Source: Candidatus Omnitrophota bacterium (GTDB taxonomy: Bacteria > Omnitrophota > Gorgyraeia > 2-02-FULL-51-18). From it: DNA of 64,000 nucleotides. How positions within the stretch are numbered: position 1 is the first letter of the stretch; every line of letters starts with the position of its first letter. Made by a program: the position numbers and the translations under genes. This document shows, one piece after another, positions 14,967-63,680 of the stretch. The notes below the pieces were generated by a model. The model made no database searches. It saw only the letters and a program-made list of their open reading frames with translations, and had not been told where the DNA came from. Location: positions 604 to 64,603 of the forward strand of contig CAMDWQ010000005.1 in NCBI GenBank assembly GCA_945877765.1. Direction: 5' to 3'.

Positions 14967-17900
14967 TTAAGCCGACCAGTCAGTTTGCAAAGACAGACGA
15001 ATCGCCGACGCCATATCGTTTACCAACGCCGTGATAGGCGGCAGGAGAATCCATAGAAGACTCTCCCCTTCAATGATTTCCTGAGTCTGGATAGCGTAGA
15101 ATTTTGCCGAATCAATTTTGGGCTTTCCAAGTCTTAGGCTATTTAAAAAATTAATCAGCCCGCTCTCCCCGATAGCTTGAATCATCTGCTCTTTGCCCTG
15201 TCCGGCATGCGCTGACCACAGCCCCGCCAAAGTTTCCGCTTCTAAAAAAGCGATTCCCGTGTTGGGCAAGCCTTCGACGAGAAGTGCCACCACCGAATCA
15301 CTCTTTAGTTTTTCAATCTTGTCCCCTGCTTGGCTTAAGACAATCCGCGAGACAACCGCGCCCTCGGGTCTTTGGGTCAACACTTGACCCATTCTTGCTT
15401 TTGACTGAATCCTAGCAAGCCTTCTCTGCGCCGTTAACCCCATCTTGCCGGGAAGCTGGTCAATATTGAGAAGAATGTACTGGTTACCGCGAGAGCGCGC
15501 CACGCGGTCAAATATGGCCTTCAGCAGCACTTTCTTAGCCTTCAAATCAAGCACCGAGCCAAATCGAGGATCCACCAGCTGTGCCAAATCAATCTCAACA
15601 AAACCGAACCCCGTCCCGATCGCCCCAGGTACCTGCTCGTTCCACATTTTTTGCATGCGCTCAATCAGAAATCCCTGCCCCCGCCGAGCGCTTTGGCGGC
15701 CTTGGTCTTTTTTGAGAGTTTCCTTTATCATCCGCATTTCCTCGGGACTAATCCTAAAAAGAATCTTAGCTCCCACTCTGACTTGCAGCCCTTGAGCACT
15801 TTTGCGTAGATTGAAAATGGGAATTACTCCGCTTTCCTGCTGGACAGCCAAGCGCCCCCACATAGATTTCTTTCCATGCATAGGCATAGGCAGAGACATC
15901 TCTGTAAAAAAAGTTTTGAGGTCTTGGAGCGTTTGGGAATTGGTGGGGAGGGAATCCTCCATCTCGATTTTTTTATTTTCTGCCAGCCGCGCCGCCTGAT
16001 CCGCTCCGTCATTCTGAGGCGCTGCAGGCGATGAAGAATCCAAGCGATGAGATTCGTTGGCATCAGCCAATTTTTCCACTCGAGAAGCATACCTTGAGAT
16101 GTGCTGTCCTGGTTGTACGCCATATTGATCTTCTAGCGCATCTTTCAAAAGATCTTCTGCGATTTTTAAAATCTCGCCCTCATCGACATTTCCCCAAATA
16201 CGCTTGGAAATCAACTCGATTTCTTCACCAGAATGAAATGCCCCCGAAAGTGTATTCGCTTTAGTGGCATCATATTTCAAACGCTCTGAATGCATTCCAG
16301 TTGCCGGTCCTGCGTGGCGTAAGAATAATTGAATGCCACACTTTTGAAGGATAATTTTCGCCACGTAAGCAATATTTTGCGATGGCGCCATATGAATACC
16401 TTGGGAGTGCTTTATTTTCATGGTAATAATTTTTTCATTACCCTCGGATGCCGCCAACCGTGCGGCCGTCATTCCCCCCTGACCAAGCAAGTTCAAAGCT
16501 TTTGTGTATCGCACCAGCTGAGCTACGACTTGACTATTTTTATATTCAATGATGTTGCGCGAATGGGCCCATTTGTAATCCTGAAGCATTCCCGCCTCTG
16601 AGTTGAAAAAATAGGATTTTCTGCGATCTAAAAATAACTGCCAGGCGGAGATTTTTTCTGGCGGCTCAAATCCTTTTAACCGCTGGTTGAGGCTTTCCTC
16701 ATACCCGCCTTTGCCGGCGCGATAAAAAGTGATTTTCTGCCCCAATAAGGGGTAATCCTTACTATCTTTTAATACATCTGCAATAATGGGACGAGAGAGA
16801 CGTTGAATAAAATCCTCGTTGTATTTAAAAAAGGAGGTGTATTGCTGATGGAGATCATTCGGCATGCCAGAGATTGCGGGGTAAACGAAATTCTCATAAC
16901 TAATACCGCCATTAAAAAATGGGATTAACTGAGACCACACGCGGAATAAGCTCATCTGGACCGCAGATATCACCGTGTCCAGCTCATCGGTGATTTTCGA
17001 ATCTAGATCATCTCTAGGAATTGTGCTCAATGATTCATATTGTTTTTTTAAAAACAGCATGTTGGCGTGCATGATAATAAGGTCATGATGCGAATCACTG
17101 CTGAAACTATTAAAATGCACGCCCTGTAAAAAATGATAGAGCGCAATCATTTTGACCGCCTGCAAACGGCGCCTAAATAAAGGCGGATCCGTCGCATCTG
17201 ACTGCATGATTTCAGGCGAAAATAAATTTGGAAGCTGTAAAGACATCTTAATAAATCCTTCGTTCGCCAAAGGATCTTGAACGTTTTTCAAATCTCCCCC
17301 CAAGATCAAAAAACGTTTAAGCACCAGTCCAAAGAGAGATTCAAAATCCAATTTAAGCTTCGCATTAGAACCGTTGTTGTAAACTTCTATGGCCTCTTCC
17401 ATCACAACAACCTCGTGCTCAGAAAGAGGCTCGCTCATGGATTTTACGATGTACGCCATGGCAACCGCCTCCAGAGACTCAAGCGCGGTCCTTGCGCTCC
17501 AATCGCCTTGGTCCAAGATTACCGTCCCCTGATTACGCAACCTGTCCAGCGCCGAAGAGACCTGAGATGGAAAATTTTTATATTCGGAACCATCAAACAG
17601 TCGGTTGACAGCAAAAACCACCTCGCTGTACCCTCGAGCCGCATCGTGTGGTGACCCAACAGCGGCTGTTTGCCAACTCTGTATCAGGGAAAGCAAAGAA
17701 GACCTGCTTATCTGGGGATCATGGCCCGCCAACCGCGCCGCCGCAGCCGTGGAACCGGTGTCAGTCCTTGACATTTGACTTTCTGGGCTTTCCACCAACC
17801 CTTCGGCCCGCCTCAGGGCAAGCCGCGCACCAGAGCGGTGCTTATTTTCCAGTTGAATCAAGTGATTGAGCACTTCTGCCGTACTCGAGGCATCTCCCTG

Positions 17901-20900
17901 CCACTCTCCATCCGCAGAATGAAGCGCCCAACCCTCTGTGGTCTTCTCAATAGTTATATCGGTAGTGCTCGCTGGATTAGGTACGTCTTCGACACGTTTG
18001 ATGCCCGGTATCGCCCAGAAAATCTCGCGCCGAAGCGGGCGCGCATCCCTAGGTTCCCCGATCAATGCAACAGACTCGATGGTTGTTTCCCATGTGGGGT
18101 CGCTCACAAAAATTTTATTCCGTTCAGAGGCGGGAATCAAATCAGCGGGATCAATATAAATTATTTTATTTTCGACAGCCATTTGGTTGATAATGTCATA
18201 ATTCGGGTCTTGAAGACGATCGGCTTCCGCCTCATCCCGAAAATAAAAAATTGCCTGATGCAGGTGGGGAGCAATAATCGATTTGTTCCGGGATGGTCCA
18301 ATCTTACCGATGTTTTTTCCGTGACGGACACTATCACCTTGCTTAAGTCCCTCGGCTGGCACAATGTGCGTATAGACAGTATAAAGCTTCCTGCCGTAAA
18401 CGGTTGTTTCCATGATGACGGTGCTTTGCATGTCGTCTTCAAAGATCCATTTCACCTTGCCGTCGATCAAAGAAAAAACAGGTCGTCCTGATCCCGCCGC
18501 TTCCACCTTACCATCAACCGATTCAATGACCGCCAAATCAATACCGCCATGCTTCTGTTCCCGGTGCGACTTAAAACGGCTCACCTCTCGCCACCAACAT
18601 CCCAGATCCCCAAATTTCATTCCCTCGCGCAAAATAAAACGTCGAGCACCCCACTCCTTGGCCGTTTTTCTATAGGAAGATAAAACCATTCTGCTTAACT
18701 GACGGTGGGCCTTTTTCAGAAATATTTTATCCTGAGACTTCTCCCGGCTGTGGAGGTCTGTTTGGCCGACCATAACAGTCTCCTGCACTGCCGAAGGCTG
18801 TTCCGCCGGCTGATTTGGTTGCACCGCGCTTATATCTACTTCGGAACCGGTGTCAGTCCTTGACATTTGACTTACTGGTTTTTTCGCCAGCCTCGCGGCG
18901 GAAAGATCTCGTGTGGACGCATCAGTCAACGCCTCGATGAGCAAAGAAAATGGATTGTCTTGTTTAATAAGAATACCCCGCACCGTTAAAAAAGTTAGCT
19001 TTAGTTGATCTGTTATCTCAAAAGAGACCCTATTCTCCTCTTGTGGACGATCGTCCGAAACAACACTTGTTATTAGGTACCACATCTCTCCCTCGTTATT
19101 GAGGCACTGTTTAAAAATATTTGCTACCGATTCTTGTTTCGCATCAAAAAAATATCCATCAACAAACGATCGAAGCATCGCTACAAAATCCTCTGATGTA
19201 TCATGAACTAAAATCGTATGTAGAACCCTGCTAACATCCAGAAAACGAAGCCTGGCGGATCCTAGTGCGTCCGCCGATTCGGGCACATTCCAAACCGTGT
19301 TCAAATCTCTCAAAACAACATGCCACTTTTTCTCCTCGCTGCCCTGCATCAGCCCGGTATTAGCAAAAGTGGGGTAGCGATGAATATATCCATTTCGATG
19401 AAGCTCTCTCAGAGCCTTGCCATACTCATAAAATATTTTTTGGACTGATTCTTTGTTCTTTATGGGATTAAAAAAATCTCTGTCAGAGGCTTTTGAATCA
19501 GACGAGTTGTGCTTAAGATCACCAATAACTCCCTGATCTGTCACCGATAGCCGGAAATCTTCGCCGGTCATGCCGGCAGCGACCCAAGCATATTGTTGTG
19601 TGGAATCATGGCTACTTTCCATGAGTGCCCAGCCCAGAGCTTTATCGACCGGCAAGCTAAGCTGCGAGAGCTTGCGCATCAGCTCATCTTCGAGCTCTGC
19701 CCCCTTGGGATTTAAAGTACCGCTATAATTTTGCCCAGCAAATGTCGTTGTTGTAAATCGACCTTGATTATCGATGGTTGGTGGAAATTTTACAAAACCA
19801 GCCTCCCCCAAATAAGGCACTAACTTATTAGCCTCATCCACCCGCGGCCTTACACCCTTAAAACGGATATATAAAATCCCATCTATGGGAGAATCTAACT
19901 TCAAATAGATCGTTCGACCTTCCTCTGGCCAGAAATATTCACGATGTTGAATAAAAATTTTTCCTTGGTGTAAGGCTTGGGCCTGTAAAATATCCGCGGT
20001 ACTTACCAATGCCCCGGACATTATCTTTTCCGCGATAGCTTTTTCCTCGTGGCTCAAAGAGTCAAAAAATTTTGTATCACGGTGGTCTTTGACTATTTTA
20101 AAAGTGGCTTTTGCCAGCCGCGCGCCGGAGCGGCGTTTAGAAGAGATGGGGTCAGTCCTTAAGATTTTACTTTCTGAGTTTCCCGCCAACCGCGCCGCCT
20201 GAGGCCTAGTCTTTCCTTCAAGCTTATTTCGGATTGCCTGATAATCCGAATCATTCTGACCATTGTCTCTGATAATCAGCCTCTGATTACCAGGCAATGT
20301 GATCACCATAAATCGATTCGCTAACTCATTGGCAATGTGAACCTTCACTACATACGTCTGCAAGACATCTGGCGTCGTCACAAGGTACTCTTTGTAAGCA
20401 GGTGCTTGCGAGACATTCTTCGCATCAAAGCCATCTCCGGAACGAATCAGTCGGACAAAATCATGAACAAACGCCGGATCTTTTTTTTGGATGTTTCCGT
20501 TGATAGCATAGACTCTGGAACTGGTGTCAGTCCTTGACATTTGACTTCCCGAGTTTTCCGCTAACCCTTCGACCCGGCTCAGGGCTAGCCGCGCTGCAGC
20601 CCCACTGTTATCTTTCGAAGACTCACCACCCGTACTGCTTGGAATGAGCCCAGTAATCCAGGTAGCGACTTTGATGATGTTATCCGCAACGACTTTATCC
20701 CCATAATAAGAGGACAAAAGGCCTGCGGGTTCGCCGAAGCCCGGTACTCTACCGACCCATTTTTGAACCGAAAGTCTTATTTTTAAAATCACCAGAGGCT
20801 TCAGTTGTTTGAAAGACGCCAGAATCTGCAGAGGTACCCCGATAACATTAACAATGGGTAGAACACTAAGATAGGCCCAGCCGAATTTTTGCTCGGGGTG

Positions 20901-23900
20901 ACGGAACGCAAATATATACGTGGTCACAAACCGGTACGCTGAGCTGATCGACCACGAGATAAGAAGCCACTTCCAGTTGTTGCCCACGACACCCATGCCC
21001 ACCCCCAACAGATCGGAAGTCCATGTGAATATCTTTGGAAGCAAATGAAGCGAATAAAGAAGCAAATAGACATCGATCCCCGTGCTTGATTCCTTGAGAC
21101 CAGCAAGCTCATTTTTCTGATCCTCAGAAATCAACCCATGTGAATACGCTTTATCGATATCGTCAAAAAATACGCGATTGATAAAATTCATGCGGAATTT
21201 TTCCATAAAAATAAATTTCCCAATGTCAAAAGGAGCTTTGATTATCCGGAAAAGTGTTTTGACTGCCCAGCGGAGCACGCGCCAAGAAAAAGTGGCGGTT
21301 GCTGTGACGGCACTACGCATGAATTTGAATGGAAGTGTTAAAGAGTGCCCAACCATATAAGCTAAATAAGCAGACCTAGGCTCTCTAAATTCTCGGGCTT
21401 GTTCGGGACTGATGCGCTTGGTGATTTCCCAATAATCAATGTTATTTTTTCTTGAGAGCTTGAGAAATTCAGCAAGGTCAAACCCTTTTGCCCAAAACTG
21501 TGGGGAACGATCCAAGAAAGTCTCCCTAAGAGCACGATAATCTTTTATCCAAGCGGCTAGGTGAGCAGACTCCCCCGGTTCCAGTAAATCGGGGTGGGCT
21601 TTCATATATTCCTCAAAAAGATCCATATTCATTAGATGAAAAGTATCCGGATAATTCTCGGCTTGTTTCGCGTGATCAGTGGCGTCCCTGAATTGCTTAA
21701 AAAAGAAAAATGGAAACGTGTAGCCCCACAGCAGAGCCGATATATTTCTCTCCGTATCCACCCAAAGCATAAGGCCGCTTGCCAAACTCCGTTTGATGTT
21801 GGGAAATGAAAACCACGCCATCCCCGGCGCGCCGCTGTCATTGATAGCGACTTGAGAAATCAAGTTACCCGCACCGGCCTCCGCCAACGGCTGTTTAAGC
21901 TGGCGCATAAGCTCCACCTGTTCATCAAACTTTCCATCCTTCTCAGTTGACAACCGCAGATAAGACCCGCGCAGTTCGACGTAGTCCATCACCAGTGCCC
22001 AAGAGCCGGCTTGAGGAACCCAAGCATAGGCCTCGCGCGGAATGATGCCCTCAAAATTTTTACCTTTTAGAGAGCGAACGATCATGCTCAAAAATTTATA
22101 ATTATACAAAAGCGCCCTAGCGACCTCTTCATACCGCTGGGGACCAAACCCGCCTTGAAAGGTTAAAAAATATTGCACGTCCCGGATGATTCTTTTAAGC
22201 CCCCGCGCCCGAAATATCTTGAGGACCTTTATCTCTTTGTCTGGACCTTCCACTTTCCACACTTCACTAAAACCGCCGCCATCCCCCAGGCGAGATTTCA
22301 CCAGGTAGCTCTTATTGCCGAGACTATTCCCGGAAAAGTCCTTAAGCTCTAAGTTAATACTTAATTCTGGATACAGCCCATTTTTTGTATTTTCCGCCAA
22401 TCGCGCCGCGGTAGGCGTTAAGTGCCAAGCTTGATTTCCACTCGGTCGGGGTGTATATTCAGGGCGTAAAGGAGTTTTCCAATGAAAAAAAGCCTCATCT
22501 CCAGCGATCCCGATTTTTGCGCGGGGAAACTTTGCTTCACTGCGACGCGTATCCCTGTTTATATGGTTCTTGAGCTTCTCGAAGCGGGTGAATCTTGGAA
22601 AAAGATCCTCAAAAGCTACCCAAGTCTGAATGAGGCTCACATCCACGCCGCGCTTCACACGGCGGCTGAAGTCTTGAAAAATCAGGAATACCATTCTTTT
22701 GCCTAAATCTGACATTTCCTGGAAACTTTTTGGAGATGAAAATATCAGCTTTGACGTCATAAAATTTCTAAAGAAAAAGGGGTATAATGTCATTGCCTGC
22801 CCAAAAAGTCTAAAAAATGGCGAATTATTCCATCGGCTAATCAAAGAGAGACGAATACTTTTCACCCACGACAAGGACTTTCTGGACTCTGGGCGGTATC
22901 CTGCCTCTAAAACAGACGGCATTATATTCATCCCGATCCACCCCGCCACAGACAAAAATGTAATTCCCGCACTCCATAGCATGCTGGTAAAAATATCGCC
23001 GAGAGAAATATCTGGGCGGTTGGTTATTTTGTCAATGGATGGTTTCACCATCCAGCCGGACTCAGCAGACTTCGCTTCCTGATTCTCAGCTAGCCACGTA
23101 GTCTGATTTTTCTCCTCTATCCCATTGTCACGGCCTGTCTTCACCCCCAACGCCTGAGTAAGCTCCGCAATTTTCCCCGCCGTCAGAGTTCTGAGGAGCA
23201 TATTAGTTTTGGGTGTGAAGGAATTTAATACGGGAAGTGGTGAGTGGCTTTTTTGGCTTAAGAGAATTTGTTCGTATCTTTTGAGATTGGTCTCTTGCAA
23301 CACTTGAGGAGTCAGGGAAATGTAGGAGATGTTTTTCTGCTTGAGTAGGTATTTAAGATTGGGGGTGTGGTAGCCTCCGGTGATTAGAATGTACTCGTGT
23401 GCGGCGTGGGTAATGGTTTTTGTAGGTGCGGCGGGTCCGGGTCGCAAGCCCTCGCTTGCGACACTTCGCTTCGGCATGGATAGCCTTCGCGTCGTCACCT
23501 GTCGGACTCCGCTGTGCTCATGTAATTCTTCATTCCGCGCAGCGGAGGCCTCCCCTCCGGCGCCACCCGCATGTGCTTTGTTTGCTGTACCTGTCGCCGG
23601 GTGTGGGGTACTTTCTATCACCTCCAGCATATTGGAGATAAAGGCTTGGTCTCTTTGGTAGGTTAATTCATAGAAGTCTTCGCAATAACGAACCATGTCT
23701 TGGTAGCCATTTTCTAGGAATAAGGCTTTGTCATAATTGTTTTTTTGATTCATGAGCTTTTGGTTGAGGAAACCTGTGATTTTTTGGATACTCGTGTTTT
23801 GTTTATCTTTTCTATAAGACTCATACTCTTGGGGAGTTAGTTGAAGTAGGAATAATTTTTTTAGGAAGTCGATGTTGTTAGAAGCTTGAATTAGATTCTT

Positions 23901-25130
23901 TTCATCGGGGGTCACGATGAGAGAGTCGAGGATCTTTTGTTCTAGAAGCTTTTGTTCGTTTAGGATCTCTTGGGGGTTTAAGGACAATGAATATTTGAAA
24001 TAGGCTAGATACTTTTGAAGATGGGGATAGTTGCTATTGTCTTTTAGTTGATCCGATAGGAGAAAGAGGAAGGCTTTGTGGACTTGTTCGTCTTTGGATC
24101 TTGCGGCGTCTTGGAGCTCTTTTTGGGTTTGGGTGGAAAGAGAATTAATCAATAGGGCTTGTTCTTTTTGAGCTACTTCGAAGTTGATTTGTTTTTCTTT
24201 TTGGTTTAGGTCTTCTAGGAGTTGTATGTTTTTAAAGCCTTTAAGTTCTAGCTTTTGGGCTTCTTGAAAGAGAAGGCTTAGGTATTCTCGCAAAGAGAGC
24301 TCGCCTTTTTGGTGAGCTTTAAGTTTTTGGTTAAAGGCTAGAAGGTAGGGGTTTAAAAGAGTGGGCTCCAAGGTGTGAATTGTGTTTTCAACTTGTGCTA
24401 GATAATCGCTGTATTTTTCCCTTCGTTTGGCACTTCGCCGGTAAAGCTCCACCGACTTGGCGTAGAGAGACATGTCTTCTACTCCCCAGAGCGTCATGGG
24501 GTGATTGCTGGTTAGGTCTAGATACTCGGTGCCTTGGAGTTTGGCCTGGAGAAGAAAGGATTTGGCGACTTGTTGTCTTTTTTCAAGGGAGGCGTATTTT
24601 CTTAAGAAAGAGAGAGATTCGTTGCCGCTTCCAGCTTCTAGGAAGATGTAGTTTGAGAGATTCTTTTTCTGGCTATAGAGGATATCTAAGAGCTTCGCCT
24701 CATTGAGTTGTCCTGAGTTGTTGGTGTGAGCATCTTGAATTAGTATTACACATGCCGGGTGGCGCCGGAGGGGAGGCCTCCGCCGCGCGGAGTGAACATT
24801 TACACGAGCACGGCGGAGTACCGCAGGTGACAGGCCCCGGCCACTCCGTAGCACGCTTTTGGTTGGAGCAACCCAAGCATCTTCGATAGTTGCTACTGAT
24901 TCAGGGATTTGGGGAAGAAAGTCTTTGGCCCACTTTAGACTTTTTTGCTTTTCCCCTCCATCCTCAATCCTCCATCCTCTATCCGCCTTTAATAGTTCAG
25001 GAGCTGCATAAGAAAACTCTTGAATTAAAAGGCATAAAATTAGCGTGAGCGAGAGGCTCTTAAGAAAGACCGTTCGGGTCGCTTTATTAGCGAGGGCGGT
25101 GTTATTTGTCATAAGTTCATGTGTCAACAT
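14967..25130 (-). CDS. giant modular protein (3387 aa): signal/anchor, a ~600-aa N-module shared with the second giant ORF, a kinase-like module, an M23 peptidase module and further uncharacterised modules separated by AARLA-type junction motifs
   Basis: Single uninterrupted 10,164-nt ORF. N-terminal hydrophobic segment. The N-module aligns with ORF 47988..55961 ('IQDAHTN', 'LEAGSGNESLSFLRKYASLEKRQQVA', 'GGYHT'). Gly-loop 'LGDGGGFSEVWKVE..KVLKI'. M23 signature 'HGGIDLA...YTVYTHI...GDSVRHGKNIGKIGPSRN...PHLH' at about 18230..18560. Confidence 0.7.
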   Translation of the reverse strand: MLTHELMTNNTALANKATRTVFLKSLSLTLILCLLIQEFSYAAPELLKADRGWRIEDGGEKQKSLKWAKDFLPQIPESVATIEDAWVAPTKSVLRSGRGLSPAVLRRARVNVHSARRRPPLRRHPACVILIQDAHTNNSGQLNEAKLLDILYSQKKNLSNYIFLEAGSGNESLSFLRKYASLEKRQQVAKSFLLQAKLQGTEYLDLTSNHPMTLWGVEDMSLYAKSVELYRRSAKRREKYSDYLAQVENTIHTLEPTLLNPYLLAFNQKLKAHQKGELSLREYLSLLFQEAQKLELKGFKNIQLLEDLNQKEKQINFEVAQKEQALLINSLSTQTQKELQDAARSKDEQVHKAFLFLLSDQLKDNSNYPHLQKYLAYFKYSLSLNPQEILNEQKLLEQKILDSLIVTPDEKNLIQASNNIDFLKKLFLLQLTPQEYESYRKDKQNTSIQKITGFLNQKLMNQKNNYDKALFLENGYQDMVRYCEDFYELTYQRDQAFISNMLEVIESTPHPATGTANKAHAGGAGGEASAARNEELHEHSGVRQVTTRRLSMPKRSVASEGLRPGPAAPTKTITHAAHEYILITGGYHTPNLKYLLKQKNISYISLTPQVLQETNLKRYEQILLSQKSHSPLPVLNSFTPKTNMLLRTLTAGKIAELTQALGVKTGRDNGIEEKNQTTWLAENQEAKSAESGWMVKPSIDKITNRPDISLGDIFTSMLWSAGITFLSVAGWIGMNIMPSVLEAGYRPESRKSLSWVKSIRLSLISRWNNSPFFRLFGQAMTLYPFFFRNFMTSKLIFSSPKSFQEMSDLGKRMVFLIFQDFSRRVKRGVDVSLIQTWVAFEDLFPRFTRFEKLKNHINRDTRRSEAKFPRAKIGIAGDEAFFHWKTPLRPEYTPRPSGNQAWHLTPTAARLAENTKNGLYPELSINLELKDFSGNSLGNKSYLVKSRLGDGGGFSEVWKVEGPDKEIKVLKIFRARGLKRIIRDVQYFLTFQGGFGPQRYEEVARALLYNYKFLSMIVRSLKGKNFEGIIPREAYAWVPQAGSWALVMDYVELRGSYLRLSTEKDGKFDEQVELMRQLKQPLAEAGAGNLISQVAINDSGAPGMAWFSFPNIKRSLASGLMLWVDTERNISALLWGYTFPFFFFKQFRDATDHAKQAENYPDTFHLMNMDLFEEYMKAHPDLLEPGESAHLAAWIKDYRALRETFLDRSPQFWAKGFDLAEFLKLSRKNNIDYWEITKRISPEQAREFREPRSAYLAYMVGHSLTLPFKFMRSAVTATATFSWRVLRWAVKTLFRIIKAPFDIGKFIFMEKFRMNFINRVFFDDIDKAYSHGLISEDQKNELAGLKESSTGIDVYLLLYSLHLLPKIFTWTSDLLGVGMGVVGNNWKWLLISWSISSAYRFVTTYIFAFRHPEQKFGWAYLSVLPIVNVIGVPLQILASFKQLKPLVILKIRLSVQKWVGRVPGFGEPAGLLSSYYGDKVVADNIIKVATWITGLIPSSTGGESSKDNSGAAARLALSRVEGLAENSGSQMSRTDTSSRVYAINGNIQKKDPAFVHDFVRLIRSGDGFDAKNVSQAPAYKEYLVTTPDVLQTYVVKVHIANELANRFMVITLPGNQRLIIRDNGQNDSDYQAIRNKLEGKTRPQAARLAGNSESKILRTDPISSKRRSGARLAKATFKIVKDHRDTKFFDSLSHEEKAIAEKIMSGALVSTADILQAQALHQGKIFIQHREYFWPEEGRTIYLKLDSPIDGILYIRFKGVRPRVDEANKLVPYLGEAGFVKFPPTIDNQGRFTTTTFAGQNYSGTLNPKGAELEDELMRKLSQLSLPVDKALGWALMESSHDSTQQYAWVAAGMTGEDFRLSVTDQGVIGDLKHNSSDSKASDRDFFNPIKNKESVQKIFYEYGKALRELHRNGYIHRYPTFANTGLMQGSEEKKWHVVLRDLNTVWNVPESADALGSARLRFLDVSRVLHTILVHDTSEDFVAMLRSFVDGYFFDAKQESVANIFKQCLNNEGEMWYLITSVVSDDRPQEENRVSFEITDQLKLTFLTVRGILIKQDNPFSLLIEALTDASTRDLSAARLAKKPVSQMSRTDTGSEVDISAVQPNQPAEQPSAVQETVMVGQTDLHSREKSQDKIFLKKAHRQLSRMVLSSYRKTAKEWGARRFILREGMKFGDLGCWWREVSRFKSHREQKHGGIDLAVIESVDGKVEAAGSGRPVFSLIDGKVKWIFEDDMQSTVIMETTVYGRKLYTVYTHIVPAEGLKQGDSVRHGKNIGKIGPSRNKSIIAPHLHQAIFYFRDEAEADRLQDPNYDIINQMAVENKIIYIDPADLIPASERNKIFVSDPTWETTIESVALIGEPRDARPLRREIFWAIPGIKRVEDVPNPASTTDITIEKTTEGWALHSADGEWQGDASSTAEVLNHLIQLENKHRSGARLALRRAEGLVESPESQMSRTDTGSTAAAARLAGHDPQISRSSLLSLIQSWQTAAVGSPHDAARGYSEVVFAVNRLFDGSEYKNFPSQVSSALDRLRNQGTVILDQGDWSARTALESLEAVAMAYIVKSMSEPLSEHEVVVMEEAIEVYNNGSNAKLKLDFESLFGLVLKRFLILGGDLKNVQDPLANEGFIKMSLQLPNLFSPEIMQSDATDPPLFRRRLQAVKMIALYHFLQGVHFNSFSSDSHHDLIIMHANMLFLKKQYESLSTIPRDDLDSKITDELDTVISAVQMSLFRVWSQLIPFFNGGISYENFVYPAISGMPNDLHQQYTSFFKYNEDFIQRLSRPIIADVLKDSKDYPLLGQKITFYRAGKGGYEESLNQRLKGFEPPEKISAWQLFLDRRKSYFFNSEAGMLQDYKWAHSRNIIEYKNSQVVAQLVRYTKALNLLGQGGMTAARLAASEGNEKIITMKIKHSQGIHMAPSQNIAYVAKIILQKCGIQLFLRHAGPATGMHSERLKYDATKANTLSGAFHSGEEIELISKRIWGNVDEGEILKIAEDLLKDALEDQYGVQPGQHISRYASRVEKLADANESHRLDSSSPAAPQNDGADQAARLAENKKIEMEDSLPTNSQTLQDLKTFFTEMSLPMPMHGKKSMWGRLAVQQESGVIPIFNLRKSAQGLQVRVGAKILFRISPEEMRMIKETLKKDQGRQSARRGQGFLIERMQKMWNEQVPGAIGTGFGFVEIDLAQLVDPRFGSVLDLKAKKVLLKAIFDRVARSRGNQYILLNIDQLPGKMGLTAQRRLARIQSKARMGQVLTQRPEGAVVSRIVLSQAGDKIEKLKSDSVVALLVEGLPNTGIAFLEAETLAGLWSAHAGQGKEQMIQAIGESGLINFLNSLRLGKPKIDSAKFYAIQTQEIIEGESLLWILLPPITALVNDMASAIRLSLQTDWSA
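22482..22706 (+). CDS. DUF433 protein (antitoxin-like partner of DUF5615), nested antisense inside the giant ORF
   Basis: AAAGGAG ribosome-binding site 8 nt upstream. 'ATRIPVYMVLELLEAGESWKKILKSYPSLNEAHIHAAL' matches the DUF433 family. Confidence 0.55.
   Translation: MKKSLISSDPDFCAGKLCFTATRIPVYMVLELLEAGESWKKILKSYPSLNEAHIHAALHTAAEVLKNQEYHSFA
22699..23082 (+). CDS. DUF5615 PIN-like protein (toxin-like), nested antisense inside the giant ORF
   Basis: Overlaps the DUF433 gene by 8 nt (typical TA coupling). 127 aa. DUF433-DUF5615 is a known gene pair. Confidence 0.5.
   Translation: MPKSDISWKLFGDENISFDVIKFLKKKGYNVIACPKSLKNGELFHRLIKERRILFTHDKDFLDSGRYPASKTDGIIFIPIHPATDKNVIPALHSMLVKISPREISGRLVILSMDGFTIQPDSADFAS
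23485..23572. repeat. MITE family C copy, in-frame inside the giant ORF (inverted relative to the copy at 24754)
   Basis: Reverse complement matches the 24754..24845 and 63585..63680 elements ('gcggaggcctcccctccggcgccaccc'). Translated within the giant protein as '...GGAGGEASAARNEELHEHSGVRQVTT...'. Confidence 0.55.
24754..24845. repeat. MITE family C copy, in-frame inside the giant ORF
   Basis: 'gccgggtggcgccggaggggaggcctccgccgcgcggagtgaacatttacacgagcacggcggagtaccgcaggtgacagg'. Encodes '...NVHSARRRPPLRRHPA...' in the giant protein. Confidence 0.55.
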
Positions 25131-47418: not shown

Positions 47419-47991
47419 ATGCCTAGGCCATCAAGAATGATTTACGAGGAAGCGTTTTATCATGTATTTAACCGTGGAGTTAATAAAATGCCTATATTTT
47501 TTGATGAATTAGATAATAAAATATTTATAAAAATATTGCGTCATGAAGCATTGGAAATGAATGTTCGTGTGTTTGCTTATTGTCTAATGCCGAACCATTA
47601 TCATTTATTCATCCAAACTAAAAATGCTAATTTGAATATATTCATGCAAAAATTGGCAGGTCGCTATGTCCAGTTAGTTAATTTCCGGCATAGCCGGGTT
47701 GGCGCATTGTTTCAAGGTAGATATCAAAATCGTCTGGTGGATATCGACTCGTACGCACTGAGGTTAACTAGGTATATTCATCTGAATCCGGTGATCGCTG
47801 GTTACGCCAAAAGGCCGCAGGACTATCCATGGTCCAGTTACAACAGTTATCGAGACAACCAAAATTCTTGGATATCGACTGACTTACCGCTAGAGCTTTT
47901 AGGTGGAAAAAATAAAGCTTCGTTTAGGCAATTTGAGAAGTTCCATGAAACGGTGCCAGAGGGGTCTGACCCCTATGGTACCGTGGTTTAG
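47419..47991 (+). CDS. REP-associated tyrosine transposase (RAYT, IS200/IS605-like Y1 transposase)
   Basis: HuH motif 'HYHLF'. 'YIHLNPV' family signature. 190 aa. The 3' end reads through another REP copy (47953..47982). Confidence 0.75.
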   Translation: MPRPSRMIYEEAFYHVFNRGVNKMPIFFDELDNKIFIKILRHEALEMNVRVFAYCLMPNHYHLFIQTKNANLNIFMQKLAGRYVQLVNFRHSRVGALFQGRYQNRLVDIDSYALRLTRYIHLNPVIAGYAKRPQDYPWSSYNSYRDNQNSWISTDLPLELLGGKNKASFRQFEKFHETVPEGSDPYGTVV

Positions 47992-50900
47992 GCGGCCTGG
48001 AGAAATTGGCGCTGCTGACTGGCGAGAAAACGCAGGGCCGTGCTGACGTCGACCTGGGTGAGCGCCCGCAAAGCCAATCGTGCGGCTAGTTGAAGCAACG
48101 CCCGGCCCAAGAGGACTTCCGTGAGTTCTTGGGTTTCGGGACGCAGTCCTGAAAGCGTCGCCCAGGCATCGTCAAACGGCTGAGGACGGTTTTTGGGATC
48201 CTTCAGACGGCCCAAAATGATGGCTAACTGCATGAAGCTAAATGATAACACGTCGCCATCGGCCACTTCTTTCACCGGCACGCGAAGCTCTTCTTGGAGA
48301 GCGGGCCTCTGCGGCGGACCAACACGCACCATCTCGGCTCCCACCAAGTCCTCGGGGGCAGATTCCAGAAAGAGACTACTATCCCAGCGGATCCAAGTAG
48401 CGGCATTGACGCCGACGGGAACCAAATAGACGTTTCGTCCCCATTCTTTCGATTTTATCGTATGTAAATACAGGATAAACGCTTCAAGGTACGCAGGACT
48501 TGCCATGTCCAGCCAGGCGGTGTTGATTTCTAAAATCACAGGCTTGGTGTGATCCACAATCACCGAATCCAAGAGCGAGTTGACGCGCCCTTCCACCGAA
48601 GAGGAAAGACTACTCAGCGCACTGATACTGTCCGCACCACGGCCACGACTGCGAATCAACTGCTCATACTGCCCGCGAGTTACCGTCAGAATAGATTTAC
48701 TGTAGCCACGAAGCCAAAGCTCGGCTTCCCCCTTCTTATTCATCCTGACATTTAATAGGGATGAATCTCGACCCCTAGCTGTCTCTACGGGGAAATCCGC
48801 CTCATTTTTTAATTGTGCTATTTCCCAGGTAGAAACCTTAAAAAGGTTCCTATTTTTTCGAATCAAACGGCGTAGATAGCTTTGTGACCGCGTAAGCGAA
48901 GACGCTGCACGGGCTCGAGGCCGACTGCTGGCCGACGACGCATTTTGCAAGCGTGATCGTGAAACATAAGGCTCGATAATAGATAAGCCGGCCAGTCGGG
49001 CGGCAACTGACGGAGAGACAAAAATAACAGTCTGCGTGAATTCATATGTTCCCCGCGGTGGCACTTTTATATAAAAAAACATCGCATCAGGCTTATTTCT
49101 GGTTAATTCTAATTCCTGGTCTCCGATATTCAGAATGCGCGTGGTAACGGTTGCATAATCATCCGTTAATGTAAACGTCCTATCAATCGTAAAATCTTGA
49201 TACTGGCGAGTCTCCAGCTCTAAATTGGAATTCATTGAAGTGGAAAGCTCCTCAAGGCGCATCTTAACAAATGCTGTGCCGTTGACACGGTTAGCGTCTA
49301 TCATCTTCCATTGCCCATTAAGCAGAGTTGGATATGCCCAAAAATGTCCATCCAATGTTTGGCCATTAACAGCGGTAGTATTCCAAAAAACAGGCATTGT
49401 CGCTCGAGCTGGGATCCGGAGCGAGCTCCTTCCCGATAGACTTATAAGCTTAATCCAATCTCTCCCATCACGCTTTTCAACCGGCAATACTCTCTTAGCT
49501 ATCGCAGATAAAATATTTCTTGCTAACTCACTATCTGTTTTTAGTGAGAGCTGCGTCGAAGATGCTTCTGGATTATTATCTGTTGGATTTGAAAACGATA
49601 AAAATTTGTGCATTTTTTTACCCTCTCTTTGAAAATCAAATTCAAGAGAGACAATCATTTGTTTTCCCCGCTGTCCGTGAGGGATACGAATGGTCAAGAG
49701 CCCATCCGTAAAATCGAAACTATCAAAAACGTATACATTGTTTGTAGATCCTGTAGCGCGTACGCCATGAACAAGCTCTCTAAAATTAGTGAAACGGCCA
49801 ATAGCTGCGATCAGCTCGTCACTAGTTATGCTCTGGACTTCATCATCAACCCATGCCGCCAACCGCGCAGCAACCGGAACCGCTGGAACCTGATAAGTCG
49901 CTTCACTTTGAAAATAACTGGTAGGCGCCGTCGGATTCATTTTGGAACCATAGGCAACCGCAAACAGATTCCCTTCTTTGGACTCATACATTTTGTCGCC
50001 ACTATCCATCGCGATTACTTTAAATCTAAATATGCCAGGTCGCTTAGCTTTTAGATTTAGAACATAGCGAAAGATGCCATCCTGGGAAAAATTCGGATCC
50101 CGAACCATATCAAATTCCGACTCAACCTCACGCTCATCCTCAGTATATTTCAACGTCACCTTCACAGAAGCAGCTGCTTCGGCCACATACGCTTCAATTA
50201 AAAATGGGGTTATCTCTGTATTGGCCGTATCCGTAAACCGATGCATTTCCTCGCGATCGTTTTCACTGTCGGGACTTGTGCGAACGATAAGATCTTCTTT
50301 TTTTTTCTCTAGATCTTTTTCTGAAAGCTCTTCCCTCTTGGCGAGCAATTTCTTAATCAGTGCTACGGCGCGTGTTACTTCCACGGGCACCGCCTGGCCA
50401 TCTTCGGTCACCGGATTTCCCTGTAAAGCGGCTCTGAGATTTTCAACAGTGATAGGTAACTTGTTTTCCCATTGGCCGGATTTTTTCCCCGCTACGTTTA
50501 TTTTGTTCTCCGGTCCATACGCTCCGAGGTCAAGCCAGTTGGGAACAAACATGAGCGAATCCGACATAAAGCTAAGCTCAAGCAATGCCTCTTGCACAGC
50601 GGAAGTCAATTCGCCTGACTCGGCTATGGAAGGGTCCAACCCCGTCATTTCAGGAAATTGCGCTCGGGCGATTTCTAAAAATGCTCTTCTTGTGCCTGTG
50701 TCGGTTTCATTCCAGTCACTGCGCATGGACTCTGAGTCATGAAGACTATAAGTCCTAAAAGCAACCGGCTGTGAGGAACGTGGATCATGAACATTTTCAC
50801 CATTCTCACTGGGCATTTTTCCCCACATGGAGCATACATAATCAAAAGCACCTAGATGAGGCTTTTTGAGCTGTTCCGACGTAAAACGCGCCAATGTCTC

Positions 50901-53900
50901 AAAGATCACCGACGTCCCCGCTTTTTTGGCCCGATCCAGAAGCTCTGAAAAAAGTTCCTCTCCCGGACCGTAATCGTAGGCAGCGACACGCAAGTTATCG
51001 TCGGCCTGGGGACCCTCGCCTTCGAAAAGATACTGAACAATTCCATTATCTATATCTTTATCAACCAAATCTCTTTTTCCATAACGATGGTCTGTCAGCC
51101 GGACATAATTCCACACCGGCCCCTGCCCGTAAACTTTTGGCTCCACCACATCATCCACACGGACCCATGGCGCCTCCAATCCTTGATACTTGTCATCTGC
51201 TTTTTTAGCCTCGCGCGCGACGTACATCATCGCGTACTCGGCCAAATGATCTTCGTCTGGATAAGCCAAGTCCACGAGCCTTTTGACCAAGGGATTGGCG
51301 GAAATTAATTCCGATGTTTTCAGCGCGTGTGCAAAAATCGCGGTAACTTTGGCGGCGGTCTGCTTCTTAATATTCTCCGCCTCAACTGGCTTTTGACTAG
51401 CCTCGGCCTTGGCGGCATCAACCATTGATCGCACTTGGTCATAGACCCCTAGACTCCCAAGAGTAAACTGACTTTCACCATCTTCCATATACAAATACGC
51501 CAAATAAAACCCAAGCACATGATCCAAGCGTATCGTGGTCGCCATTTTCTGGTAGTACTCAAAAAGCTTGATCATGTACGGCAGAGTATCCGGATGAGAC
51601 CAATCATAAGCAAAAAACTGCCAGTATTGACCAATGGGGTGCTTTTCCTCCGGTAGAGAGCCGTGCGTAAAAGGCCTTTGGTAACCATTTTCTTTTTTAA
51701 GACCGAAAATCTGGGGATTCATCCACACGTCAGCCCCGCCTCGGGCGAAAGGAATATCCATGGCGACTTGAATGCCATTTTCCTTAGCAACCGCCGCATA
51801 CTGATCAAATTGATCCCGCGCGACAAACTGGATAAACGAGCGAAGTTCAATCTCGCCTGCATATTTATTTTTCAAGCGCGCAATTTCATCCGCATTTCTA
51901 TCACTAATGAGTTCCTCCCAAGTTCTCCAATCCCAGCCATTAAATGGATTTTTACTTAGATGTTCTTCTTTGAGAATAAGAAATAGCATATGATCCGGTA
52001 GCCAGTCCGCGTGGTTGGCCTTAAACTCATCAAATTTTTGCTTGGTCTGGCTCTCTTTAAACCCAGCCGAATTTTTTAAAGAATCCCAAATAATTTCAAG
52101 GGCTTCTTTATTAAGCGCAATCACTTGGTCATGCTGAATCGTTTCGCTGTCGCTGAGGCTTTGAATTTGCTGAGCATGCGCTGTAACAAACTCGTCATAG
52201 GCTCTAAGATCCAGATCGCCGTTGAAAGATTCTTTTAGGGCGGCTACCAACATCGGAACGCTGATATAACGAAGGTCAATCGCTCGAGAACTATCCTCCG
52301 AATACGGCGAATTAAATGCCGCCGACCATATCAGTGGAAGGATCTGATGCATCGTCAATCCCATTTCTTTAAAAATAGGGATCATTTGAATAGCGGTCTG
52401 GAAATTTCCTATTCCCCAATCACCCTTGTGACGCAGATGGTGAAACGGCATGAAAGACCCTGTGATTCTCTTGCCGTATTCGACGGGAGAAATAAAATCT
52501 TTCGCTAGGGGCCTATCAACAACCTCAATCGCCGCCAAGCGCGCGCCATCAGCTTTCACCAATCCCGAATCGCGCAAGATGTCTTCAGGTTTAATGGCAG
52601 AGCCCATCATCATCAAATGCGCGCCTGTAACCCAAGGATAATCCCGACGAATTTTTTGGATTTGCTCAACAGCCTTGCGTCGACTAAATTTTTTGAAATT
52701 GTCATGTTTTTCAGTAGTATCTTTCTTCCACTCCGCTTCGTATTCACGCACAAGCCTAAAAGCCTCTTCATTTTTTCTCCAATTAATTCCCGTCAAATAC
52801 ATCCAAAATCGGATTCCCCATGGAGAAGCAAAAGCGGTAATACCCACATGAACTTTGATGTCTTTTGTGCGATCGTCCTCGTGAATTGCTTCCAAGTACT
52901 GTTCGAATGGCTCCCATAAGATTGGGGGCTGCGTAAATATGCCCTGAACATTTTTATGAGCCAGTCTTTCAGCGGTTTCCGCTGTAGGATATAAATTTGG
53001 ATTTGCAGCAGCATATAGTGAGATATTGTTAGCAGAGGGATTCATCAAATCTCTTGCCATTGAAGCTACGCTTTTCGATGAAACGGGCCATATTTCTGAG
53101 CCTGCCAAAAGATTTTTAAATAAACGTTGAGCTAACCCTCCTCCCGTGACTACAAATAATCCAATAATGTTTTGGTTTTCAGCGGCTAAGGAGATTACAG
53201 CTTCAAGACGCTTTATCAAACTATTTCTTCGACGCGCATTCGCCGCTATAGTCACAATGGTATTGAATTTGCTTCCGGCGGCCAACTCGAGAGTATCATC
53301 CGTTTTCACCAATCGCTTTCTGTAATTTTTAAAAACCTTCCAAAAGTCTAAGTTTCCGTTCATCTGGCTTTGATAAAATACATATAGATCTCTATCTTTC
53401 CACCAGGATTCAATTCCTTTTATGAAGAAAACGTGCTTAAGAATCGAGTCAACCACATGTGCCCATAAAAATTCAAGAGCTTGAAAACGTGCCGAGTAAG
53501 GTAGGTCTGTTAAAGTAAGTGCATACACGCCGAGTTTTTTTAATCGGTCCGGGCTACTGCTATTGAGCCCATTAGAACTCTCGACGGTGATAATAAAGCT
53601 ACTGTTTGCCTCCGCCAACCGCGCGCCCTCATCGCGAGCTTCCCTATGCTCGCGTCGCCATAGATTTCGCCTTGCTTTGTCGGTAGCCCTATTAAAATGA
53701 GGCCCCCCACCTTTCGATTTAGCCCCTACAAGTAATTCCGGCTCCCCTGCCAAAAATTTGCTCGCCATTTCGCGTGCAGAAATACGAGCTTCCTCTTTCA
53801 AATCTGATCCTGGTTGCTCTAATATTTTCAGTGTATTAAAAATGTTTATTTTTCCAGAATCATCAGCGCGCTCAAAAACTCGTTCGAGCATAATCAAAGC

Positions 53901-63584: not shown

Positions 63585-63680
63585 CCGACGGGTGGCGCCG
63601 GAGGGGAGGCCTCCGCCGCCCGCAGTGAAGAATTACACGAGGACAGGCGGAGTCCCGCAGGTGACAGGACCCGTCGAGCA
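63585..63680. repeat. MITE family C copy between the SDR and queD genes
   Basis: 'ccgacgggtggcgccggaggggaggcctccgccgcccgcagtgaagaattacacgaggacaggcggagtcccgcaggtgacaggacccgtcga' with terminal inverted repeats ccgacgggt/acccgtcg. Confidence 0.55.

Follow-up and report, generated by a model that had tools for sequence, protein, structure and literature searches.

A toxin-antitoxin type gene pair lies wholly within the coding sequence of a giant gene, on the opposite strand, in a 64,000-nucleotide (nt) stretch of a Candidatus Omnitrophota genome (assembly GCA_945877765.1, contig CAMDWQ010000005.1, positions 604 to 64,603; this whole stretch is hereafter called the window). The pair consists of a DUF433 antitoxin-type gene and a DUF5615 toxin-type gene, and the open reading frame (ORF) of the giant gene, 3387 amino acids (aa) long, runs through both of them. 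In the explanation that we favour and consider probable, positions 22395..23102 are a junction-bounded slot of a modular giant gene that has been filled antisense by the toxin-antitoxin operon: for the host the operon would be removable filler, and in itself a selfish addiction module. The same arrangement recurs in at least 12 loci belonging to about seven divergent lineages, and the relative frame is identical in all of them. Two kinds of host occur, multi-module giant ORFs and inteins.

A complete operon on the opposite strand

A first, sequence-only reading of the window had described two well-formed, coupled plus-strand genes antisense in the giant ORF, and the ORF list, Pfam searches and the ribosome-binding site bear this description out (Table 1). 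The 74-aa protein matches PF04255 (DUF433) with 68.4 bits over profile positions 1-53 of 56, and the 127-aa protein matches PF18480 (DUF5615) with 43 bits over positions 2-108 of 110, both over the gathering score; NCBIfam gave no match to the cassette proteins. The antitoxin gene comes first and the two genes overlap by 8 nt. Together with a promoter-like site and a ribosome-binding site of their own, these coupled genes present the bicistronic layout of type II toxin-antitoxin systems. On the host strand, the -35 box of the putative promoter is read as the peptide 'GNQAW'. A site of the form cTTGAY..17..TAnnnT also stands upstream of DUF433 in several relatives, both embedded (loci L016, L017, L019, L005, L025 and L027) and free-standing (L002). 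In an alignment, the window toxin keeps every column that is invariant in its homologues (among them D13 E14 N15, T56 H57 D58 K59 D60, and H81 P82 D85); the acidic residues D13, E14, D58, D60 and D85 are thus all retained.

Pairs of DUF433 (COG2442) with a PIN-like toxin were predicted to be a type of toxin-antitoxin system (PMC2701414), the PIN-COG2442 pair VapBC10 has been validated experimentally as such a system (PMC3834315), and COG4634 has been placed in the Mut7-C group of PIN-like proteins as a potential toxin (PMC5499597). Some relatives of the cassette also match Mut7-C in Pfam. The window cassette can accordingly be described as a complete, functional-looking DUF433-DUF5615 (VapBC-like) operon, whose toxicity and neutralisation would follow by analogy with VapBC10. 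Known modules of this type, such as Synechocystis VapBC10 and M. tuberculosis VapBC45, have the same domain pair, with the antitoxin first, overlapping and coupled genes and their own promoter (PMC3834315, PMC5499597, PMC2701414). They are however free-standing and intergenic, whereas the window cassette and its embedded relatives lie wholly within opposite-strand coding sequence, with a codon choice constrained so that the host gene stays open.

An insertion at a module junction

The sequence-only reading had placed the cassette at giant aa 683-883, between the end of an N-terminal module (N-module) shared with a paralogue and the first AARLA motif, and had proposed that it was inserted in a linker with the frame maintained. 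The position is correct, and comparison with homologues argues for the insertion. In the closest homologue, protein P0001 (62% identity in the N-module), the insert is lacking and '...ENQGARLA' leads directly into the next module; in the window, 226 aa of antisense cassette separate '...KNQTTWLA' at this place from 'AARLA'. The first ARLA after the GGYHT motif comes at 85-135 aa in 14 homologues, as against 321 aa in the window. The short linker noticed in the paralogous giant ORF was also found, the first junction of 47988..55961 coming soon after the N-module. TTWLA occupies the position of GARLA/AARLA in the homologues, from which it is three first-position transitions apart, and this upstream junction (J1) stands 9 aa from 'SG[WS]M', a spacing shared with L003, L016 and L019. 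The alignment of P0001 with the window therefore indicates that TTWLA is the original first junction, and that the cassette and a second junction (J2) were added behind it.

Locus L001, the closest homologue, was considered as a positional orthologue and ruled out by synteny comparison, as only the N-module is shared. Other nested genes were looked for in the two window giants: none of the eight antisense ORFs that reach at least 85 aa has a Pfam match. The window cassette is not flanked by Hint/intein splicing blocks, Pfam detecting no intein domain in the giant protein; inteins flank the cassette only in relatives.

Relatives in giant genes and in inteins

Contigs from genomes and metagenomes were scanned with an alignment of the toxin, which yielded about 50 loci; a word-indexed search with the toxin returned 3 matches only. 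The window antisense peptide, that is the host-frame translation of the cassette, was searched against a library of 1.84 billion representative proteins. It occurs in 28 protein clusters, mostly at internal positions of 1,000-7,700-aa proteins, and in the DNA of two such hosts (L056 and L057) both genes are intact, lie antisense to the host and stand in the frame relation seen in the window. The embedded loci contain intact, Pfam-confirmed DUF433 and DUF5615 ORFs with a promoter-like site upstream. Toxin identity to the window ranges from 30 to 83%: it is 83% in L003, 63-65% in L016, L017/L018 and L019, 44% in L005, 40% in L022, 37% in L024, and 30-35% in L025 and L027. The host ORF stays open through the cassette and far past it, for about 1 to more than 16 kb, in L003, L005, L016-L019, L022, L024, L025, L027, L056 and L057. 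The equivalent antisense frame of at least 20 free-standing relatives is open over 21-720 nt only. In free-standing relatives the two genes overlap by 8-11 nt; one of them, L002 (58% identity, on the same contig as L004), displays the same two-gene layout amid ordinary genes.

Two loci deserve separate mention. In L020 (1730-2483, corresponding to P0042; toxin identity 41%), the antisense frame is open exactly over the cassette (753 nt) and stops occur on both sides; this cassette may have been freed recently from an embedded state, or may lie in a decayed host gene. In L003, a junction-to-junction segment of about 70 aa beside the cassette (545-790) contains a copy of the promoter region, whose -35 box gives 'GNQGW' in translation, and behind it a GC-rich palindromic insert. 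A second cassette in tandem may have left this segment behind.

Hosts of the first kind are multi-module giant ORFs in which the lineage's own junction motif stands on either side of the cassette. The motif is ARLA in the window, L003, L016-L019 and P0034; ASPLA in P0035 and P0051; RSEMR in P0038/L056; RAEVR in L022 and P0056; and S-x-SGE[RK] in L005. Among the ARLA-type hosts the slot varies: in the window, L018 and P0034 the N-module is immediately followed by the cassette, and in L003, L016 and L019 the slot is internal. Hosts of the second kind are inteins: the Pfam Intein_splicing domain brackets the cassette in L024/P0048, P0037/L057, P0046, P0047 and L027, and the cassette stands at the usual position of the endonuclease. 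Pfam detects no endonuclease domain in these five intein hosts. The intein-bearing proteins are mutually unrelated; among them are an AdoHcyase (L027), a 1477-aa protein (L057) and the 5028-aa P0050. What both kinds of host appear to have in common is that the segment carrying the cassette is expendable after translation.

This distribution brings to mind a homing or mobility module, in which DUF433 (a winged-helix DNA binder) and DUF5615 (a PIN-like nuclease) would act in trans as a site-specific nuclease, replace the in-frame homing endonuclease and spread the host intein or module. The occupation of the exact endonuclease site in inteins devoid of any other endonuclease domain, the presence of related cassette-bearing inteins in unrelated proteins, and the occurrence of the ARLA-type module in different slots of different giants all agree with such an activity. 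We nevertheless regard it as unlikely: characterised DUF433-PIN pairs act as growth-arresting toxin-antitoxin systems (PMC3834315), to current knowledge the PIN-like toxins in these systems are RNases, and many close relatives are free-standing amid ordinary genes.

The conserved promoter-like site raises another alternative, a regulatory role of the antisense unit. Transcription from the cassette promoter, convergent with that of the host, would modulate expression of the downstream modules, or host transcription would tune the toxin/antitoxin ratio, and the coupling would be under selection. A promoter-like site facing host transcription is kept in all embedded copies examined, and no plus-strand terminator was found downstream of the window toxin gene. 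Such a unit would leave unexplained why hosts are restricted to inteins and junction-bounded slots, and free-standing relatives have the same promoter; we give this alternative as little weight as homing.

A host frame apparently kept open by codon choice

The claim that the giant ORF reads through the cassette without interruption is confirmed: between 22300 and 23300 its frame has 0 stops, as compared with 25 and 17 in the other two minus-strand frames. Given the codon usage of 36 long window ORFs, chance would leave about 6 antisense stops in the two relative frames concerned, and the probability of observing none is 7e-4 when computed from stop densities and 3e-4 (2.8e-4) by synonymous resampling of the two proteins. 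Each embedded locus likewise has 0 antisense stops, for 2.6-8 expected. The corresponding probabilities at other embedded loci are 2.5e-3, 6.9e-4, 1.1e-3, 8e-3, 3e-5, 7e-5, 3e-2 and 4.7e-2, values that are not fully independent since the loci are phylogenetically related. The free-standing L002 has 3 antisense stops.

The two strands are related differently in the two genes. DUF433 codons are in register with the host codons of the opposite strand, while in DUF5615 the wobble positions of both strands coincide. Antisense stops are consequently avoidable for the most part by synonymous choice, which keeps DUF433 free of TTA, CTA and TCA codons and DUF5615 free of NNY|TAN and NNT|CAN combinations. 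The idea that the observed frame is the sole one permitting synonymous stop removal was discarded by reasoning.

Among the embedded cassettes, differences accumulate at the third codon positions of the two genes. Between the window and L016, for example, differences at codon positions 1/2/3 number 11/5/41 for DUF433 (74 codons) and 40/20/76 for the toxin (127 codons). This concentration at third positions indicates that the toxin and antitoxin proteins are under purifying selection. Wobble positions are saturated between embedded loci. In the DUF433 part, host position 1 corresponds to DUF433 position 3 and is near saturation, so that the host peptide drifts, unconstrained; in the toxin part, the filler looks conserved because both strands share their wobble positions. 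The antisense translation had been taken for non-domain filler, and indeed the host-frame peptide has no Pfam match. To judge from these substitution patterns, the host reading of the cassette is filler, and the absence of stops is its sole visible constraint. The frame appears to be kept open by selection across lineages, recurrently and beyond chance.

Two further alternatives can be weighed against these data. One is true dual coding, the antisense reading being a functional host domain in which, for instance, the hydrophobic stretch 'MLWSAGITFLSVAGWIGMNIMPSVL' would serve as a membrane segment. Conservation of the antisense peptide can be recognised from host to host, this stretch included. 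Such conservation is however an expected by-product of the shared wobble positions in the toxin part, and does not extend to the DUF433 part, where the host peptide drifts; moreover, the filler lacks a Pfam match, and splicing would in any case remove the peptide from intein hosts. We find dual coding very improbable.

The other is chance or artefact: a neutral insertion of recent date, a chimeric assembly, or two genes flanking the cassette that became joined in-frame by accident, the last being an option that the sequence-only reading had left standing. A single locus with a probability of about 3e-4 could turn up in a very large scan. The stop-free arrangement, though, is repeated in at least 11 further loci, with the same frame, in independent assemblies and with saturated wobble positions. 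In addition, homologues have the N-module fused directly to downstream modules, and intein hosts have their C-terminal splicing blocks and extein downstream of the cassette in the same frame. The accidental joining of two units is rejected, and chance or artefact as a whole is the least probable of the alternatives considered here.

Giant genes and their junctions

Coordinates of the cassette and of its host are collected in Table 1. A protein identical to the 3387-aa giant is present in the public representative library (P0031); exact look-up of the DUF433 protein and of the giant protein in the contig index gave no match.

Table 1. Elements of the nested cassette, its host gene and the paralogous giant gene, in window coordinates
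Feature	Position	Strand	Size or residues	Remarks
DUF433 (COG2442) antitoxin-type gene	22482..22706	+	74 aa	ATG start; ORF list, Pfam
DUF5615 (COG4634, Mut7-C-group PIN-like) toxin-type gene	22699..23082	+	127 aa	TTG start; ORF list, Pfam
Ribosome-binding site AAAGGAG	22468..22474	+		7 nt ahead of the DUF433 ATG; read from sequence
Putative sigma70-like promoter of cassette, TTGATT-17-TATATT	22431..22459	+		sequence match
Giant host ORF	14967..25130	-	3387 aa	ATG start; N-terminal module, then cargo modules split by [G/A]ARLA motifs
N-module of giant ORF	23103..25130	-	aa 1-676	hydrophobic N-terminus
Upstream junction J1, degenerate, 'TTWLA'	23088..23102	-		ACT ACG TGG CTA GCT
Host-frame reading of cassette	22413..23087	-	aa 682-906	stop-free filler without domain
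Downstream junction J2, 'AARLA'	22395..22409	-	aa 908-912	GCG GCG CGA TTG GCG
Paralogous giant ORF	47988..55961	-	2657 aa	same N-module and ARLA junctions; no cassette; short linker before first junction

The N-module common to the giant and its paralogue covers about 630 aa, with 33% identity. The cargo that follows comprises an M23 peptidase (Pfam Peptidase_M23, aa 2211-2295) and an HPr-like stretch in the giant, and a GH77 4-alpha-glucanotransferase in the paralogue. [A/G]ARLA junctions number 9 in the giant and 6 in the paralogue. Their codons vary while the peptide stays the same, so that conservation is at the protein level. A DNA-level recombination repeat was rejected as the main explanation of ARLA for the same reason, codons differing among copies. 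The giant thus combines unrelated functional modules in one ORF, parted by a short conserved peptide, and the cargo differs between homologues: database homologues of the N-module are Omnitrophota proteins that share this module and carry differing cargo.

The N-module has no match in NCBIfam or Pfam, and a profile search of the PDB with its alignment returned noise only; comparison of folds was the informative approach. In an AlphaFold2 (AF2) model, the fold is EreA/ChaN/TraB/RRSP-like. Invariant residues are D133-x-H135, E165, E218, R493 and G585-G586-x-H588. This predicted fold fits a role of the N-module as junction protease and does not prove it. Within its first 45 aa the giant protein begins with a hydrophobic stretch that resembles a signal peptide or an anchor (LKSLSLTLILCLLIQEFSYAAP), yet several cargo modules look like cytoplasmic enzymes.

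More broadly, the window giants belong to an Omnitrophota giant-ORF family (P0001-P0027; L016, L017, L019, L022 and L056) with an N-module and highly variable cargo: M23 peptidase, GH77, the HPr-like stretch, kinases, histidine kinases, RelA/SpoT, sigma-70 region 4 and CsrA. Short motifs specific to each lineage (ARLA, ASPLA, RSEMR, RAEVR and GASMG) link the modules. The family looks like a set of bacterial polyproteins with co-varying junctions.

Two small repeats were observed in these genes. The first, of 64-77 nt, has three copies in the window, at 23494-23569, 24756-24819 (inverted) and 63589-63665 (inverted). Two of them are in-frame within the N-module in opposite orientations, are read as 'GGAGGEASAARNEELHEHSGV' and 'SPAVLRRARVNVHSARRRPPL', and sit in loops of the AF2 model with a low predicted local distance difference test score (pLDDT); a 97% identical copy is found at a different site in a homologue from another assembly (L001, 1889-1964). 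This repeat looks like a small element of the miniature inverted-repeat transposable element (MITE) or Rickettsia palindromic element (RPE) kind, tolerated in coding sequence. The second is a 30-nt stretch, AGTCAAATGTCAAGGACTGACACCGGTTCC ('SQMSRTDTGS'), identical at the DNA level at about 20546, 18872 and 17780 (aa 1529, 2087 and 2451), each time a few codons past an ARLA junction. This stretch may serve recombination in the shuffling of modules, or be a further small mobile element.

Discussion

We propose that the DUF433-DUF5615 cassette probably persists in giant genes and inteins as a selfish addiction module which takes shelter in removable segments. To produce the host modules downstream, or the C-extein, ribosomes would have to cross the cassette, and the filler of about 226 aa would be harmless, since it would be removed or isolated after translation. 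In intein hosts it would be spliced out with the intein. In giant ORFs, cleavage at the junctions would release it; for the ARLA junctions of the window giant, the EreA/ChaN/TraB/Tiki/RRSP-like N-module is a plausible protease. With its upstream junction mutated to TTWLA, the window copy may keep the filler as a tail on the N-module. The cassette would travel with its module or intein, and loss of the segment would be penalised.

Several points weigh against this proposal, besides the partial dependence of the per-locus probabilities. Translation through the cassette is deduced from sequence conservation only, and the mutated upstream junction makes clean excision of the filler doubtful in the window copy. 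Toxin activity and neutralisation in the DUF5615 subfamily are assumed by analogy with VapBC10 (PMC3834315), and addiction would be the default reading of any toxin-antitoxin pair. Finally, several of the other junction-type hosts (ASPLA, RSEMR) are without the N-module motif.

A broader interpretation is that the DUF433-DUF5615 subfamily forms an unrecognised class of selfish elements that settle antisense in post-translationally removed segments, take over the role of the homing endonuclease (through addiction or mobility) and keep the host frame open by their own codon choice. ARLA, ASPLA, RSEMR and RAEVR would then be genuine processing sites, led in this case by a Tiki/RRSP-like protease module. 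This interpretation is more tentative: we see it as possible, with the odds against it.

Three points escaped the sequence-only reading: the cassette belongs to a recurrent and conserved type of module and is no single insertion, junction motifs bound it on both sides, and its relatives occupy inteins. Comparison with known systems helps to situate this arrangement. Inteins with a nested homing endonuclease likewise harbour a selfish gene in a post-translationally removed segment, which leaves the host protein unharmed, and the cassette's relatives share their insertion point. Homing endonucleases are however encoded on the same strand and translated within the intein, whereas the cassette is a toxin-antitoxin pair on the opposite strand with its own signals, and the host segment in the window is a junction-bounded slot, unlike an intein. 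In the 'fractured genes' reportedly described by Dassa et al. in 2009, split inteins are said to flank a free-standing endonuclease gene at the endonuclease position, sometimes on the other strand. There, the host ORF is broken and repaired by trans-splicing; in cassette hosts, the ORF is continuous through the passenger.

Other parallels concern tolerated insertions and overlapping genes. Rickettsia palindromic elements and similar repeats are non-coding sequences of about 100 nt that insert in-frame in genes and are tolerated as peptide in loops or linkers. The two in-frame copies of the repeat of about 70 nt in the giant gene resemble them; the cassette differs, being an operon of two genes and 700 nt that lies on the other strand and evolves under purifying selection. 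Reported antisense overlapping genes of bacteria are usually young, poorly conserved small ORFs lying over a conserved gene. The situation is reversed here: the embedded genes are conserved, and the long host reading appears to be an unconstrained, stop-free filler that recurs across lineages. Conserved genes nested antisense in another translated bacterial gene are very rare and disputed, and the window case is unusually clean. It offers a natural system for studying the co-evolution of two strands under a 'stay open' constraint. It also carries a warning for annotation, as gene callers give the giant ORF only and miss the nested cassette.

For the giant genes of Omnitrophota, ORFs of great length with many domains, it has been proposed that the protein is cleaved after translation into several products (West-Roberts et al. 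2023, bioRxiv 10.1101/2023.11.21.568195). That study is without cleavage points, ARLA-type motifs or antisense-nested genes; the family in the window is led by an EreA/ChaN/RRSP-like N-module. A literature search on DUF433/DUF5615 in connection with inteins, Omnitrophota polyproteins, or antisense toxin-antitoxin genes in inteins found nothing relevant, two Omnitrophota giant-gene studies included. The kind of toxin-antitoxin system is known; what is apparently new is that it is nested antisense, and conserved as such, in inteins and in giant-ORF slots bounded by junctions.

This nesting represents a new niche for toxin-antitoxin modules and possibly a new route by which inteins and modules persist without a homing endonuclease. 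For the Omnitrophota themselves, the tolerance of a 226-aa nonsense insert exactly between junction motifs provides indirect evidence that their giant ORFs are polyproteins with defined junctions, so that whether and where the giant proteins are cleaved becomes directly testable.

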